Source: Candidatus Obscuribacterales bacterium (lineage in GTDB: Bacteria; Cyanobacteriota; Vampirovibrionia; Obscuribacterales; Obscuribacteraceae). From it: a DNA stretch of 64,000 nucleotides. The translations under genes and the position numbers were made by a program. Positions 6,791 to 34,864 of this stretch are shown here, in pieces. The stretch is taken from positions 1,344,001 through 1,408,000 of the forward strand of contig CBDDIJ010000005.1 in NCBI GenBank assembly GCA_965228855.1, given 5' to 3'. Each line of letters begins with the position of its first letter. Position 1 is the stretch's first letter. Under the pieces are notes generated by a model, which searched no databases, was not told where the DNA came from, and saw nothing but the letters and a program-made list of their open reading frames with translations.

Positions 6791-8829
6791 CAGTCTCTCT
6801 TACGGCTTCTCGACAGAACGATCGGGAAGGTTCCCTCTCTTGCTTCGTTTTTCGCGGTCCGGGCAGCTTCAATCAAGCTCAGCACATCATCACCATCAGA
6901 CGGCAGCCCGGCAACACCGAATGACAGCAAGAGGTTTCGCCGGTCAACATCCGGCGCCAGTGGTGTGGTAGTCAGCGCATCGAGAATTCTGTTGGCGACG
7001 AATGCAGCCTGTGACGGTCTGGTATTCGGCAGCAGGAGACCATATTCGGTGCTTTCGAAGTGACCGAGGCTATCGAGCGGGCGCTTAACAAGTTCGATTC
7101 TTAGAGCCGCAGCGTTGATCACATGCGGTGGCAGAGCATCCGCTCCAAAACCCATATCAGCGCGGCGCTTGTTCATCTCGAACATGATGAATGACAGCGG
7201 CCAGCTGTAAGCCTCGAAGCGATAATACTCGTATTCCATGTAGTAAAGCATCGCTTCCCACGAGAGTATGCCCGTGTCCGGTCTGATAAAGTTGTACCGA
7301 AGCGCTTGAACAGTCTGTTTTCCCTCACCCAGGAAGTCGAGCGCACCGCCCCTGGCGGATGCAGGCTCTTTGATGTCCATAATCCCGCAGTAAAGGAAAT
7401 TGAACAAAAGCGGCGCCCACTGCGCCATATCCATAGGTCTGTCTCGCAGCAGATCTGTGAAAGTGCGCTTCTTCTTGAGCATTTCATAGATTTGCTTCTG
7501 CCATTCAAAATCGAGAGGATGTCCTTTTGACAGCATAAGCTTGAGTTCGGTGTCGCCAAGATTCTTCTGCTTGAGGACGAGCTGTGATTCATAAACCAGC
7601 CCTGCCGCTTCGAGATGTCTAAGCTGTTCCAGCAAAGCGGTACCTTCCATGATCGAGACCTGCAGGCTCTTTTCACAGGAAGTCATATCCGTAACTTTTT
7701 TAGGATGAAACTTATAATCGCCTTTGCGCCAGGTGACGACTTCTTTGATTGCCGCATCACCGCGAGAAGCACCCGCCTGAGCGTGCTTGGGAGTTCCATC
7801 CACGAAGTAAACCTGCGCTATCGAAGCGTCAGAAATAACTTCGAGCATTCCGGTCACTTTATTCATTCCAATATTCGTGAGCACATCGGCAATCTTCGTC
7901 TTTCGAAGATTCCCTTCCAATGCCGCGACAGGAGCCTTACCAGCCCCTCCGGGAACCGCCGGGTTGTCCGAATAGAAGTCCGCGGGCAAACTGCCTTCGG
8001 GCAAGCCTGATAGTGATGACTGTTTAGGAAAAGTGTCTTCGACACCACCGCCTGCGCCACTGATCACGGGAGTGCCGCGATAATTAATATCGCCCGCTCC
8101 CGGTACTATCCTGTTGGTGCCGGTGGTTCCGAGAGCTTGATGACTTCCGGTTCTCCGCGGATTCTGAATTGTCTGATATCCGCCGGTCGACTTTAACGCT
8201 GGCGGTATCGCGCCTCCGCCCGGATCCATACCACCGTACTGCCCGGACTGCTGATATTGACCTGATTGTGTGTACTGACTGTATTGACCCGACTGCTGAA
8301 AAGGTGACTGCGAGCCGGTCATCTGCTGCTGATTGGCGTTAGGGTAGTTTCCTGCCTGCGGATTGTTTCGCGGAGGAATTGACCGTTCGACGTTAACCGG
8401 CGGAAAGTTTCCAGTGCCGCTGACCGGCGGAAAACTACCAGTTCCACCCGATGGAGCAAAGCCGCCTGTGGCACCACCCGCGCTTGCACCTGTTTGGGTT
8501 TCAAGCATCATGACCACGTCCATAATCAGGTTCAAATCGCTGGTTTCGAATTTGCTTACCAGCTTGGATTGGCGCCCATCATCTTCCCAGAGATTCCACA
8601 ACGGATGGGGCGTAACTTTATCGAACTTGATCAGCAAACAATATGTCTTATAAGTCCCGGGCACCGACCACATAAGCTCAACTTCCTGGGGGCGATTTAC
8701 CTGAGCCTGCTCATACAGATTCTTCAGAGCATTCATGTCAGGGAAGACTGCCTGTTTGGGCAGCCTTATCTTGCCTGGTTGTTGTGATTGCTTGCCTCTA
8801 CCGAACATTTGGGTCTTATGTGGCTCCAC
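6790..8829 (-). CDS. DUF4388/PATAN-like domain plus degenerate GGDEF-domain protein with long low-complexity linker
   Basis: LEGNL...IADVL...VTGMLEV...QVYFVDG...W..GDYKF (DUF4388-like); C-terminal D.LTG-like start, RPLD I-site, ESTEY in place of GGDEF, LSFGVA. Confidence 0.75.
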   Translation of the reverse strand: MEPHKTQMFGRGKQSQQPGKIRLPKQAVFPDMNALKNLYEQAQVNRPQEVELMWSVPGTYKTYCLLIKFDKVTPHPLWNLWEDDGRQSKLVSKFETSDLNLIMDVVMMLETQTGASAGGATGGFAPSGGTGSFPPVSGTGNFPPVNVERSIPPRNNPQAGNYPNANQQQMTGSQSPFQQSGQYSQYTQSGQYQQSGQYGGMDPGGGAIPPALKSTGGYQTIQNPRRTGSHQALGTTGTNRIVPGAGDINYRGTPVISGAGGGVEDTFPKQSSLSGLPEGSLPADFYSDNPAVPGGAGKAPVAALEGNLRKTKIADVLTNIGMNKVTGMLEVISDASIAQVYFVDGTPKHAQAGASRGDAAIKEVVTWRKGDYKFHPKKVTDMTSCEKSLQVSIMEGTALLEQLRHLEAAGLVYESQLVLKQKNLGDTELKLMLSKGHPLDFEWQKQIYEMLKKKRTFTDLLRDRPMDMAQWAPLLFNFLYCGIMDIKEPASARGGALDFLGEGKQTVQALRYNFIRPDTGILSWEAMLYYMEYEYYRFEAYSWPLSFIMFEMNKRRADMGFGADALPPHVINAAALRIELVKRPLDSLGHFESTEYGLLLPNTRPSQAAFVANRILDALTTTPLAPDVDRRNLLLSFGVAGLPSDGDDVLSLIEAARTAKNEAREGTFPIVLSRSRKRD

Positions 8830-31103: not shown

Positions 31104-31541
31104 ATGCTCTTAGTCGGCGCATCGCCGGGAGAACGCGTGGATTCGCAGAAGGTAGTAGACCCGTTTTTGAAAGGAACGATCGATTGGCTCGATCAGTTCT
31201 CACCTGGGCTCTGGCGAAACCTGGATAAGGTTTTAGAGCTTGGCGAGGACAAAGCTAAGCTGATTCTGAAGAGTTTTCTCGAGTGCTCATGCCAATCACA
31301 GAATATGCAGACAATCCTCATTGGTAGACGCGGAGTGCTTTCGATGCCTCTGCCCTGGGTTCGAGAAAACCTGCCCGCGTGCGTCGAGCAAGAACTCGAC
31401 TTGAGTGATTACTGGCAATATCGCCGCTTGCTCGAACTTTGCGATGCGCTCGACGGCAGCCTTTTGAAACGTTATGTAGCGCTAGGCATCGAAAGCGACA
31501 AAGACGACATCAAAGAAGCAGCTAACGACTTTCGGGTTTAA
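31104..31541 (+). CDS. Hypothetical helical protein, possibly immunity-protein-like
   Basis: 145-aa acidic ORF with CQSQN...GR...P..W and D.WQYRRLLEL...IKEAA.DF pattern; family recalled, not verified. Confidence 0.55.
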   Translation: MLLVGASPGERVDSQKVVDPFLKGTIDWLDQFSPGLWRNLDKVLELGEDKAKLILKSFLECSCQSQNMQTILIGRRGVLSMPLPWVRENLPACVEQELDLSDYWQYRRLLELCDALDGSLLKRYVALGIESDKDDIKEAANDFRV

Positions 31542-32043
31542 GTTGCTGAAGAGCATAATACTCTAAGTACACGTACCAAGGTCCCTCAATGTGACGGAGG
31601 TTCACCCGTGCGCCACCGTTGAAAAACGGACCGTCTAAACTGTTATAGAGTTCCATGAATGGCCTGTAACCAGTGACATAAGCAATGCCCTTAGTCTCAC
31701 CTTGTTGCTCGCCATCGTCGGAAGCCATTGCTACTTTTATCATGAGAGAGTCTCTTCGGACATCTTGAGCTTTGCAGACTTGGAGAAGCTGAGTGTACCT
31801 CGAAGACGCCATCCCCCGTGTTGCTTCAGCAATCGCCTCTCCGTCCTTGGAATCAGGCGACATGTCTTCAAACGTCGCAACCAAGCTTGAGAAACTCGCA
31901 CGCTTATCTCGAAACGACTTAATCAAGAAATCATCACTGGGCAGCGGCGAGTATAAAACCATTCCAGCAACTATGGACGCGCCAACCAGACCAACTGCCA
32001 AAGTTGAAAAAACGAATCTTTTATCCAGACGTTGAAGTCGCAT
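31522..32043 (-). CDS. Hypothetical protein with N-terminal TM anchor
   Basis: 173-aa ORF, one hydrophobic helix, C-terminal RHIEGPWYVY. Confidence 0.6.
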   Translation of the reverse strand: MRLQRLDKRFVFSTLAVGLVGASIVAGMVLYSPLPSDDFLIKSFRDKRASFSSLVATFEDMSPDSKDGEAIAEATRGMASSRYTQLLQVCKAQDVRRDSLMIKVAMASDDGEQQGETKGIAYVTGYRPFMELYNSLDGPFFNGGARVNLRHIEGPWYVYLEYYALQQLKPESR

Positions 32044-32192
32044 ACTCTCGAAATACTAAATGCACCGTTCTTATCACTCTACAACTTCTTCAGTCAGAAG
32101 GGGTCTCCTCGAACTGCGCGGCGACCGCTAGATTAAATCCGCTCGTAAAAACCACACTGAAATTCTTGTCATCTCAAAACTTTCTGCCTAGT

Positions 32193-33122
32193 ATGGCAGC
32201 ACTGGGTCTGGGTGATAACGTGCCAGCTAGTGTGGAGACAATTAAATTGAAAAATGACGAACCAAAACAGGTCTTCCTTGGAGGAGCCTGCGGCTTGACC
32301 ACGTGGCGTAAGGACATAGCCATTCCTCTATTCGAAGAAGCGAACGTTTCATATCACAATCCGCAGATGCCCCTGGGTGCGTGGAAGGAAGATGATCAAT
32401 TCGATGAGATGCGGCGCAAGGATGAGTGCCTGGTACAACTGTTCGTAATCAATGGAGACACGCGAGGAGTCGCATCGGTAGCAGAAGTCGCATACTTGAT
32501 CGGAGCGCGGAAGCCGGTCGCAATTGTCCTCGAGGATATCAAAGCAGGAACAGATGTTTACGGTACAACCATCGACGCAGTCGAAGCCGATGATTTAAAC
32601 CGTGGACGCATTTTTGTGCGAGCGATGGCAGACCGGCACAATGTGCCGATCTTCACTGACATTGCCGAAGGGACAAGGTATTGCATTAAGCTCGTAAAGG
32701 AGTTGGAGGGGAGCCTGACTCTTCGTCAAATAAATGAGGCTCTATCACAAATCGAGTTTACGAACCATGTATTCCAGGCCGAAGAAGCCCCTGGTGGCTT
32801 CCACCTGTGGCTCAGCGGGATCGAACCTGATTCCTACACCGGAAAAATGGAGGTCCAGGAGAGTCGACGTTGGTTTATCAGCAATAAATGCACGCCATCA
32901 GATGTGGTGCGCACAGCATTCAAAGCGACCAGTACGTGGGCAGAGCATGAGGCTCGAGAAACTTTCAAATACAAAGGAGCGAGGGTATTTAGCCCGCACT
33001 TCGACTTAAATAAAGTGGCGGCTCGACGAAACGAAGCCGATATCGACGAAAACATCGAAGAACACGTTCACAACACGCCCGCACCGCTGGTGGTGCAGAG
33101 CGCTCGCCCATGCACGGTTTAG
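32193..33122 (+). CDS. Nucleoside 2-deoxyribosyltransferase-like (Raw/OLRN-1-type) domain fused to a second small domain
   Basis: VFLGGAC..TTWRKDIAIP...SYHNPQ...W...LFVI...TR.VAS..EVAYL...DLNRGR; C-terminal RRWFIS...SDVVRTAFKA...EHEARE.F.Y.G..VFSPH. Start uncertain. Confidence 0.72.
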   Translation: MAALGLGDNVPASVETIKLKNDEPKQVFLGGACGLTTWRKDIAIPLFEEANVSYHNPQMPLGAWKEDDQFDEMRRKDECLVQLFVINGDTRGVASVAEVAYLIGARKPVAIVLEDIKAGTDVYGTTIDAVEADDLNRGRIFVRAMADRHNVPIFTDIAEGTRYCIKLVKELEGSLTLRQINEALSQIEFTNHVFQAEEAPGGFHLWLSGIEPDSYTGKMEVQESRRWFISNKCTPSDVVRTAFKATSTWAEHEARETFKYKGARVFSPHFDLNKVAARRNEADIDENIEEHVHNTPAPLVVQSARPCTV

Positions 33123-34219
33123 AAGCATCCACCAAAACCTCTTTCAGCCTCCCAGTGATTGACACTGGACCGTACTTTACGGCGCGCTCGAGCGGTTTGG
33201 ATACAACTGATCAGGCGAGAATTCTCGGCGAAAAAATTAAACATGCCTGTCACGAGGCAGGCATGTTTTACCTGATTGGACACAACATAAAGCACGATCT
33301 GATGGATCGCGTGATTGCCGAATGTGCAAGTTTCTTCGCTCTTCCTGAAGAAGAGAAACAAAAAATCAGCTGCAGAAGAGATCCACATTTTCGCGGTTAC
33401 GGCTTGTTGAAAAACTCACGCGACTGGCGAGAACAAATCCATATCGGCGTCGAACCAGGACGTAGAGAAGGTGCGGATCTCAGTAAACTTTACTGGAATC
33501 TCGAGGGACCTAATAAATGGCCAACGCTGCGAACAAACGAATTCAGAGAAACGGCTCTAGCATATATAAATTCAATCGAATCATTGTCACGAACTGTCCT
33601 GACTCTCCTCGCGGAGGCTCTAGAGCTACCGTCGGACAACTTCACGAGAAGAATGAAAAACAATCCGTATCTCCTAACAAAGTTTATGTCTTATTTGCCG
33701 CAGTCCAATAGAGGAAGCAAAGACAGAAACTTAGAGACGGAGACATCGACCCGGGAGACAACAAAACAAACTGGCGTAACCGCTCACTGCGACTGGAGCT
33801 GGCTGACATTTCTTCAACAAGACAACGTCGGCGGCCTGGAGGCAATGGACACAAATGGTAATTGGCATAAGGTGACTCCGCTCGATAACGCGCTCGTCGT
33901 GAATACCGGCGAGTTGCTAGAAATCGAGACGGGAGGCTATTTACGGGCTAGCCCACATCGAGTTATAAACGAGCAGATCGATAGACAACGTTTTTCAAAT
34001 GCAGTCTTCATTAACCCGGATCTAGACGCGATGATCGTTCCTCAATCCAATCAATGGGGTGAGGAACGAGAAGCGGTCGCATCAAACGATGACGATCACA
34101 TCCACAAAGTGATTCGTCCGGGTAGCACTCTAACTCCGTTCGTATTCGGTGATAGCGAATGGGATAGGAAAGGCGAAGGAAACTGGTGTTATCGGAAGGA
34201 GTGCCTGACGCCATATTAA
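33110..34219 (+). CDS. Isopenicillin N synthase-family 2OG-Fe(II) dioxygenase (DIOX_N plus 2OG-FeII_Oxy)
   Basis: LPVID, AC...G.FYL.GH, FF.LP.EEK, FRGY; H-x-D (HCD), HRV, R-x-S (RFS). Confidence 0.92.
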   Translation: MHGLEASTKTSFSLPVIDTGPYFTARSSGLDTTDQARILGEKIKHACHEAGMFYLIGHNIKHDLMDRVIAECASFFALPEEEKQKISCRRDPHFRGYGLLKNSRDWREQIHIGVEPGRREGADLSKLYWNLEGPNKWPTLRTNEFRETALAYINSIESLSRTVLTLLAEALELPSDNFTRRMKNNPYLLTKFMSYLPQSNRGSKDRNLETETSTRETTKQTGVTAHCDWSWLTFLQQDNVGGLEAMDTNGNWHKVTPLDNALVVNTGELLEIETGGYLRASPHRVINEQIDRQRFSNAVFINPDLDAMIVPQSNQWGEEREAVASNDDDHIHKVIRPGSTLTPFVFGDSEWDRKGEGNWCYRKECLTPY

Positions 34220-34273: not shown

Positions 34274-34666
34274 TCAGCGCTTCGATTTTGAGGCGGTGAG
34301 CTGCTGAACCCGTTGAAACGAAAGCGCCAATACTTCACCGGCATCCCTGAGACTTACCCCCAGATCCTCCGTCAGATGGCACGCAGCTTCCATAGTGCTG
34401 GATTGGAGAGCCGCCTCGTCCTCAGCGACCTTCCTGCGAGCGCTCACTACCTTTCGTACAAGCTCATTTGCTTTCCGGGGAAGGCATATATGCTCGATGA
34501 ACTCAGCATCGACCACATCATCAACATACAAACTGAGCGCTTCTTTCAGGCGATTGCGCGTTTGCGCTATCGATTTACCCTGTGTGTGACAACCAGCCAC
34601 CTCCACTATTGTAGCTACCCACCATCCGCTCGAATCCCGCTTGTATCGTACGTTAAAAACATTCAT
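34274..34666 (-). CDS. hicB: HicB-family antitoxin with C-terminal HTH
   Basis: GWWVA...EVAGCHTQG.S......L.EAL; C-terminal GVSLRDAGEVLALSFQRVQQL HTH. Confidence 0.88.
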   Translation of the reverse strand: MNVFNVRYKRDSSGWWVATIVEVAGCHTQGKSIAQTRNRLKEALSLYVDDVVDAEFIEHICLPRKANELVRKVVSARRKVAEDEAALQSSTMEAACHLTEDLGVSLRDAGEVLALSFQRVQQLTASKSKR

Positions 34667-34864
34667 TGACTCAGCCAGCCTTCGCCTAATCAGGGACTTA
34701 GATCCTTTCTGATCTGCTTCAAGAGCCCAATCCCCAGCTCCTCACCAGAGTGGTTCGGCACAGTCGTGTTACAGATACCAACGGATCCTAATATGAGAAA
34801 CCTTCTGCCTCACTCGAGTACATTTCAGATCATGCAACACTTTCAGCAATTCTCTAGCTCTCAT
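34663..34864 (-). pseudogene. hicA: Disrupted HicA-family toxin
   Basis: Manual translation: MRARELLKVLHDLKCTRVRQKVSHIRIR, frameshift near 34780, GICNTTVPNHSGEELGIGLLKQIRKDLSP*LGEGWLSQ*; last stop overlaps hicB ATG (ATGA). Confidence 0.85.

Follow-up and report, generated by a model that had tools for sequence, protein, structure and literature searches.

A bacterial relative of Raw joined to a phage-type domain and paired with a dedicated dioxygenase subfamily: a widespread, apparently undescribed gene module

A bacterial relative of the animal Raw/OLRN-1 proteins and a 2-oxoglutarate/Fe(II) dioxygenase form a gene module that is real, widespread and apparently undescribed. The pair was analysed in a stretch of 64,000 nucleotides from Candidatus Obscuribacterales bacterium (contig CBDDIJ010000005.1, positions 1,344,001 to 1,408,000), called the window below; all coordinates refer to it. 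The features are as follows.

32193..33122, plus strand: ORF1, 309 aa, a Raw-family NDT/TIR domain joined to a phage-type domain
32262..32708, plus strand: Raw-family NDT/TIR-fold domain of ORF1, aa 24-172, with F28, C33, E72, E98, D134, R137 and F141
32712..33041, plus strand: C-terminal domain of ORF1, aa 174-283, PHROG 1540 (E 9e-17), with the motifs RxW and EHExRExF...PH
33110..33122, plus strand: overlap of ORF1 and ORF2, 13 nt
33110..34219, plus strand: ORF2, 369 aa, DIOX_N/2OG-Fe(II) dioxygenase of a dedicated subfamily, with H226, D228, H283, R294 and S296
34097..34204, plus strand: C-terminal tail of ORF2, with H330, H332, C360 and C365

A preliminary description had reported two same-strand reading frames overlapping by 13 nt, and both frames (32193-33122 and 33110-34219) are as described. 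All motifs that it quoted from ORF1, and HxD...H and RxS of ORF2, are present, and PF15891, DIOX_N and 2OG-FeII_Oxy are matched above their cut-offs. The overlap would allow translational coupling of ORF2 to ORF1, and the same overlap of 13 nt occurs in five other loci (L027, L030, L042, L043 and L054). A longer ORF1 starting at a TTG codon at 32004 was considered. This start is unlikely, as a related contig has a one-base insertion at 32069 and two contigs from another run diverge from the window at about 32123. The homologues start 0 to 25 residues ahead of VFLGG. Each gene is present in a single copy in its own genome, the GC content of the pair equals that of its flanks, and the closest named relative, at 99% identity, also belongs to the Obscuribacterales. 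Both genes are under purifying selection: in seven close pairs dN/dS is about 0.015-0.06 for ORF1 and 0.07-0.2 for ORF2. Promoter and terminator scans gave signals near the chance level, and the RNA trace consists of two short contigs from one metatranscriptome, too thin to serve as evidence of expression. A hicAB pair adjoins the module in this genome. Neither gene has a match in NCBIfam or in the PADLOC 2.0 profile library dated 2023.

The strict co-occurrence of the two genes is established. ORF1 was found in 26 of 107 Obscuribacterales genomes, including four of the seven other genomes of the genus, and the dioxygenase with its characteristic tail is present in the same 26. As these carriers are kin (six genera), a wider GTDB survey carries more weight. 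The dioxygenase is located near ORF1 in 54 of 59 GTDB loci from seven phyla, with records from Cyanobacteriota (Obscuribacterales/Melainabacteria), Acidobacteriota, Verrucomicrobiota, Accumulibacter, Polyangiaceae, Bacteroidota and Planctomycetota. Three of the five exceptions are at or close to contig ends. The fourth is a stand-alone N-terminal domain of 159 aa in a cyanobacterium, whose genome contains no tail-bearing dioxygenase, and the fifth is a planctomycete with the two genes on separate contigs. Thus the conserved pairing, for which the preliminary description had recommended a neighbourhood survey, is well supported.

Three arrangements with short overlaps were observed: ORF1 followed by the dioxygenase, the reverse order, and convergent genes. 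The 54 GTDB loci comprise 39 tandem and 15 convergent pairs; the metagenomic loci comprise 30 tandem, seven reversed and 12 convergent ones. Other genes intervene in two convergent pairs, L060 and L065. A co-transcribed pathway would not be expected to have convergent genes, as 15 of the 54 GTDB pairs do. Clustering of the neighbours of the GTDB loci revealed no third gene conserved across phyla, and 13 loci of one group show stable synteny amid ordinary genes. No fusion of ORF1 with ORF2 was found among the top 150 representatives or in a weak search of longer proteins; an apparent fusion in L023 and L047 was rejected, as the reading runs across a gap of N.

ORF1 and ORF2 each come from a known enzyme family. 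The N-terminal domain of ORF1 matches PF15891 (aa 25-115, E 1.7e-11, 44.8 bits with a cut-off of 30). A profile built from 28 fusion proteins retrieved two-domain Raw-like proteins among its top matches, with E down to 1e-81, and ORF1 is 35% identical over 138 aa (E 2e-24) to the first domain of one of them, P0195. The residue spacing in P0195 is exactly that published for Drosophila Raw, and from this we infer that P0195 is an insect-type Raw. Judged by these comparisons, the N-terminal domain belongs to the Raw/OLRN-1 family, and the kinship suggested in the preliminary description is confirmed. A FastTree tree of the domain does not settle whether Raw and the fusion family are sister groups, and thus we make no claim about the order of ancestry. 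In most genomes of the order a second PF15891 match occurs in a different protein of about 370 aa, which was set aside.

The ORF1 model has pLDDT 86.6. The top structural match of its N-terminal domain is 4mcj (Z 12.5, rmsd 2.9 over 127 residues); NDT-family structures score Z 12.5, 11.4 and 11.2, MilB 10.0, and TIR domains rank just under the NDT family with Z about 9-10. The NDT-type fold proposed earlier is therefore upheld. Foldseek with the ORF1 model gave no match at E<=0.001, and a sequence search of the PDB gave no ORF1 match better than E 0.04.

The preliminary description called the biochemistry of Raw unknown. This is outdated: Raw hydrolyses cADPR to ADP-ribose and does not hydrolyse NAD (PMC13455253, 2026). 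The Raw pocket spans two domains, with F354, C359, E396 and E422 from one and D946, R949, Y953 and D956 from the other; E396, E422, R949 and Y953 are required for cADPR hydrolysis, and R949 touches the pyrophosphate in a model (PMC13455253). The same report, in its accessible part, assigns bacterial homologues to the Raw family, proposes a bacterial origin and describes the removal of cADPR-type messengers as largely unknown. That part presents neither assays nor gene context for the bacterial homologues, and the word dioxygenase is absent from what is accessible of its text and supplement text; its Fig. 7B and supplementary alignments may include domain architectures of prokaryotes.

The residues of this pocket are largely retained among 121 fusion proteins. 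F28 is kept in 118 (Tyr in two others), C33 in 112, and D134 and R137 in 120 each; E98 is invariant (121 of 121), and E72 is Glu in 104 and Asp in 17. The position of F141 is aromatic in 120 (Phe in 109, Tyr in 11). The spacing agrees with that of F354/C359/E396/E422 and D946/R949/Y953 of Raw, as verified on P0195. The position of Raw D956, occupied by A144 in ORF1, is Thr in 59, Ala in 40 and Ser in 22 fusion proteins and never Asp. As this Asp is always absent and Y953 is mostly replaced by Phe, the specificity may differ from that of Raw. In many two-domain Raw-like proteins the pair of Glu residues is kept by the first domain and DxNRGR by the second, whereas the bacterial domain has both. 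Thus there is one Raw-type catalytic domain per ORF1 chain compared with two in Raw, and since this single domain holds both Raw halves, it would most naturally work as a homodimer in which the subunits share two sites. The residue pattern predicts that ORF1 acts as a homodimer and hydrolyses N-ribosyl bonds of the ADP-ribose type, rather than deoxynucleotides.

A comparison with MilB points in the same direction. MilB is a dimer in which F17 selects ribo- over deoxynucleotides, and the F17Y substitution switches it from CMP to dCMP (PMC4081090, accessible part). Phe28 of ORF1 lines up with F17 by the aligned range of the structural match, so that the position match is indirect; given the F17Y switch, this makes a ribosyl substrate likelier than a deoxyribosyl one. 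ORF1 also retains, as R137, the Arg that binds pyrophosphate in the model of Raw (R949). With both residues in place, the earlier suggestion of 5mC or 5hmU deoxynucleotide substrates is weakened, whereas the more general idea that a glycosidase works together with an oxygenase is supported.

The preliminary description correctly named ORF1 a fusion but left its second part without a name. This part, aa 174-283, is the PHROG 1540 domain. All 51 viral loci match the C-terminal domain part of ORF1 only, and 43 of them give ORFs of 101-153 aa; the domain exists alone as a small phage protein. The homologue in Pseudomonas phage Vanda is encoded by its third CDS. Matches occur in 105 annotated phage records, none of which covers 80% of ORF1, and among the matches listed (40 of these 105 records) 34 hit the C-terminal and six the N-terminal domain. 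The motif EHExRExF...PH is conserved in the fusion as strongly as the catalytic residues. The domain has no match in Pfam and no sequence match in the PDB, profile search included. Most likely, it binds a nucleotide or aids oligomerisation. In size, the stand-alone domain fits the class of phage nucleotide sponges as covered in the accessible part of PMC12265669, which is a lead only.

ORF2 matches both DIOX_N and 2OG-FeII_Oxy above cut-off, and its ligands H226-x-D228...H283 and R294-x-S296 are intact. Its best PDB match has E 1e-38, whereas thymine dioxygenase is a mid-rank relative (rank 23, E 4e-16). The subfamily is marked by RDWREQxH, HCDWSW, an invariant Lys191 and a C-terminal tail with the pattern HxH...RK...CxxxxC. 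This tail is invariant in all 54 aligned ORF2 homologues and occurs in all 110 complete distinct sequences, although it was absent from the scan patterns used, while 15 paralogue matches end before it. We regard it as a probable zinc site.

In some genomes the dioxygenase has another partner. A survey starting from the dioxygenase gave 125 metagenome matches, and the 80 best of these yielded 79 loci. The partner is ORF1 in 49 of these and an unrelated protein of about 300 aa, family B, in 18; in the remaining 12 the sequence stops no more than 300 nt away from the gene on one flank. Family B is encoded directly upstream of the dioxygenase and never occurs together with ORF1. Three further family B-dioxygenase pairs come from acidobacterial genomes. 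A search of 251 genomes of one acidobacterial class gave one weak, partial match to family B, and none was found in the 107 genomes of the order Obscuribacterales. When the dioxygenases are clustered at 90% identity, 66 clusters are linked to ORF1, 18 to family B and 10 are unassigned. In a FastTree tree the B-linked dioxygenases nest within the ORF1-linked ones at several places, and thus partner exchange has occurred repeatedly. The phage-type domain, the His/Cys tail and this interchangeable second partner all lie outside the preliminary description.

HDxDH is present in all 120 family B homologues and HEK in 117-119 of them, which suggests a metal site. There is no informative Pfam match (one sub-cut-off match in one of ten members scanned) and no sequence match in PHROG, Atlas or the PDB. 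The family B model has pLDDT 93, and its structural matches are helical bundles only (best Z 5.2; best Foldseek E 1.1); this null result on a model does not prove a new fold. As its model matches no known fold, family B offers no confirmation of the proposed chemistry.

A few neighbourhoods hint at NAD metabolism. In L197, family B and the dioxygenase lie behind genes for NrtR, a nicotinate/nicotinamide phosphoribosyltransferase and a cytidylyltransferase-like protein, with 4-nt overlaps, and are followed by a macrodomain gene; this B pair lies within an NAD-salvage operon. PnuC adjoins ORF1 in L059, and a macrodomain gene adjoins the dioxygenase in L155. These are three distinct loci of 147 screened, a raw count obtained with queries derived from the same loci, and the clearest case, L197, concerns family B rather than ORF1.

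Our preferred reading, to which we give somewhat less than an even chance, is a self-contained module of two enzymes for the disposal or recycling of a modified small molecule of the NAD/ADP-ribose type. ORF1 would be a homodimer, in which each of two Raw-like active sites is composed of E72/E98 from one subunit and D134/R137 from the other. It would cut the N-ribosyl bond of X-ADP-ribose (cADPR, a linear adduct or an analogue) and free ADP-ribose. The dioxygenase, using O2, Fe(II) and 2-oxoglutarate, would oxidise X or the intact substrate, the steps taking either order. The C-terminal domain would bind a nucleotide or aid oligomerisation, and family B would perform the hydrolytic step by other means.

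Another possibility, though an unlikely one, is an anti-phage system, in which the C-terminal domain senses or baits its phage counterpart and thereby switches on the NDT/TIR domain and the dioxygenase, which deplete or modify a nucleotide pool. The free-standing form of this domain in phages (ORFs of 101-153 aa in 43 of 51 viral loci; third CDS in Vanda), the patchy distribution (26 of 107 genomes; four of the seven other genomes of the genus), the linkage that persists through flips of orientation, and the adjoining hicAB would all be explained. However, PADLOC matches neither of the two genes and only 12 of 228 neighbours in 45 selected loci, mostly generic kinases, ATPases and the like with no recurring system; dN/dS is very low, and the synteny in 13 loci of one group is stable amid ordinary genes. 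With no defence-island context and no TIR enrichment either, the anti-phage role proposed in the preliminary description was not borne out. In a signalling scheme of writer and eraser, a cyclic-ADP-ribose-like messenger would be produced or edited by the dioxygenase and erased by ORF1 or family B, a true bacterial counterpart of Raw. The nearly complete Raw active site of ORF1 fits this, and so does a constant dioxygenase whose partner switches several times on the tree, as expected if any eraser suffices. However, no TIR_2, ThsB_TIR or CAP12 domain was detected in the genome of the window (95% complete), TIR_2 occurs in four of 26 carriers as compared with 18 of 81 non-carriers, and no conserved receptor or effector gene lies nearby. 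To our knowledge, no 2OG dioxygenase makes a cyclic-ADP-ribose-like signal. This scheme is quite unlikely.

Salvage of modified bases, as originally suggested, with ORF1 freeing a base from NMP or dNMP like MilB or DNPH1 and ORF2 oxidising it like thymine 7-hydroxylase, draws on the NDT-family structures being the best structural matches (Z 12.5, 11.4 and 11.2; MilB 10.0) and on the relationship of thymine dioxygenase to ORF2 (E 4e-16). We consider it improbable: the sequence of ORF1 is far nearer to Raw (E 2e-24) than to solved NDTs (none better than E 0.04), thymine dioxygenase is only 23rd among the PDB relatives of ORF2, Phe28 speaks against deoxy substrates, and no gene family of nucleoside catabolism recurs in the neighbour clustering. 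Finally, linkage regardless of orientation would be typical of a poison-antidote or selfish pair, in which the partner neutralises a harmful product of the dioxygenase. Three arrangements with short overlaps would suit it, and among the 79 loci every dioxygenase with room on both sides has a partner. This is very improbable, however, as the NDT domain is also found alone, one genome has the genes unlinked, and no mobile-element context recurs. 

A more far-reaching form of the NAD/ADP-ribose reading is speculative and rather unlikely as a whole. It would be a novel bacterial system for processing ADP-ribose signals or NAD damage, made of a zinc-tailed dioxygenase and one of two unrelated, exchangeable hydrolase partners: a symmetric, one-domain forerunner of animal Raw with a captured phage nucleotide sponge, or family B (HDxDH...HEK), whose fold is unmatched. 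If it is true, PHROG 1540 would be a protein with which many phages bind cADPR-like immune signals, and the substrate of the dioxygenase would be an ADP-ribose messenger. The literature searched, mainly open-access journals, yielded no account of the fusion, of the pairing, of the tail or of family B, and none of the four appears in a term search of a 2025 preprint about TIR systems of bacteria (10.64898/2025.12.03.692087). A one-domain version of 309 aa offers a simple system for the mechanism of Raw and a handle on how a symmetric dimer turned into two half-domains. The strict tie to one dioxygenase subfamily points to chemistry up- or downstream of the hydrolysis, of which we found no description. 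The module also provides handles on two orphan families, PHROG 1540, a common phage protein, and family B.

Among known systems, the IPNS/DIOX_N dioxygenases (thymine 7-hydroxylase, TropC, the EFE-like 9ovh, 6jyv) have HxD...H and RxS in common with ORF2, which differs in its own subfamily motifs and in the tail that 15 paralogues lack. The Pseudomonas genes PA0144-PA0148 are presumably a cluster of NDT and IPNS-like genes; no supporting paper was found, and the cluster carries no weight here. Tad1, Tad2, Sequestin, Lockin and TadIV-1 resemble the C-terminal domain as small conserved phage proteins of the sponge size class. Unlike these sponges of TIR signals, the domain has no sequence match to solved structures and is here fused to a host enzyme.

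MilB, NDT and RCL-DNPH1 share with ORF1 the flavodoxin-like fold (Z 8.6-12.5) and a catalytic Glu on the same helix, and MilB also has Phe at the ribo-selecting position, as matched by the aligned range. ORF1 differs in the lack of detectable sequence similarity, in the Raw-type DxNRGR and in the additional C-terminal domain, and, unlike MilB, it lies outside any antibiotic cluster. The Tyr by which DNPH1 selects deoxy substrates at the first-strand position is, by the same range, replaced by Phe in 118 of 121 fusion proteins. Drosophila Raw and C. elegans OLRN-1 are alike with ORF1 in the domain family, the fold, and the F/C/E/E/D/R residues with their spacing. However, ORF1 is linked to a dioxygenase, and no SARM1/TIR producer was found here; a single complete domain stands where Raw has two half-specialised ones, with D956 absent and Y953 mostly Phe, and a phage domain is fused to it in place of the dimerisation domains of Raw.

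The dioxygenase has an alternative partner. At family B loci (L178:62-979, L180:4051-4965, L212:4000-4890 and 18 more), the position upstream of the dioxygenase is occupied not by ORF1 but by a gene for a protein of about 300 aa carrying HDxDH...HEK motifs. Family B has at least 143 homologues; its structure model is confident, and neither a family match nor a fold match was found. At one such locus (L197:3-6115) family B and the dioxygenase form a single operon with genes for NrtR, a nicotinate/nicotinamide phosphoribosyltransferase, a cytidylyltransferase-like protein and a macrodomain.

The surroundings of the pair vary between loci. At L060 ORF1 and the dioxygenase are convergent and separated by an inserted small gene pair (6861-7518), which, by motif, we take to resemble a PIN-type toxin-antitoxin module. 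In one group of Obscuribacterales (L033:7972-8820 and 12 related loci) the pair is followed by a convergent gene for a TrhO-like sulfurtransferase, conserved in this group and not elsewhere. The immediate flanks in the window are:

31522-32043, minus strand: 173-aa gene, upstream of ORF1
34274-34856, minus strand: hicAB toxin-antitoxin pair, directly after ORF2

The window hicB is intact and hicA is disrupted by a frameshift and a stop, unlike the intact hicA of a close relative (L027). The 173-aa gene appears to be absent from some related strains, in whose contigs position ~32123 is joined to sequence similar to the gene end at 31541.

The C-domain of ORF1, PHROG 1540, is encoded by very different phages as a stand-alone protein of about 115 aa (loci L086-L136; PP496449.1:2448-2810; NC_019405.1:153754-154140). 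Its gene lies in the early region of a T7-like phage of P. putida. The phage protein is a candidate nucleotide sponge.

Raw-type N-domains also occur in viruses, namely Prevotella Lak phages (MK250025.1 and others), Pseudomonas phage Psa21 (MK552327.1) and a pithovirus (UniProt A0A481Z3X1), where they are possible erasers of the cADPR signal.

PF15891 matches were found in 95 of the 107 Obscuribacterales genomes. Among them is a second protein, different from ORF1:

G000:C3:2123459-2124571: protein of about 370 aa, NDT-like N-part and C-part of unknown kind

Most genomes of the order seem to have such a protein. Finally, single Raw-type domains of 150-180 aa stand alone, lacking the C-domain, in L080:5989-6468, with no dioxygenase nearby, and in proteins P0167, P0181 and P0225. 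The second motif of P0225 retains the tyrosine and an acidic residue, as in Raw.
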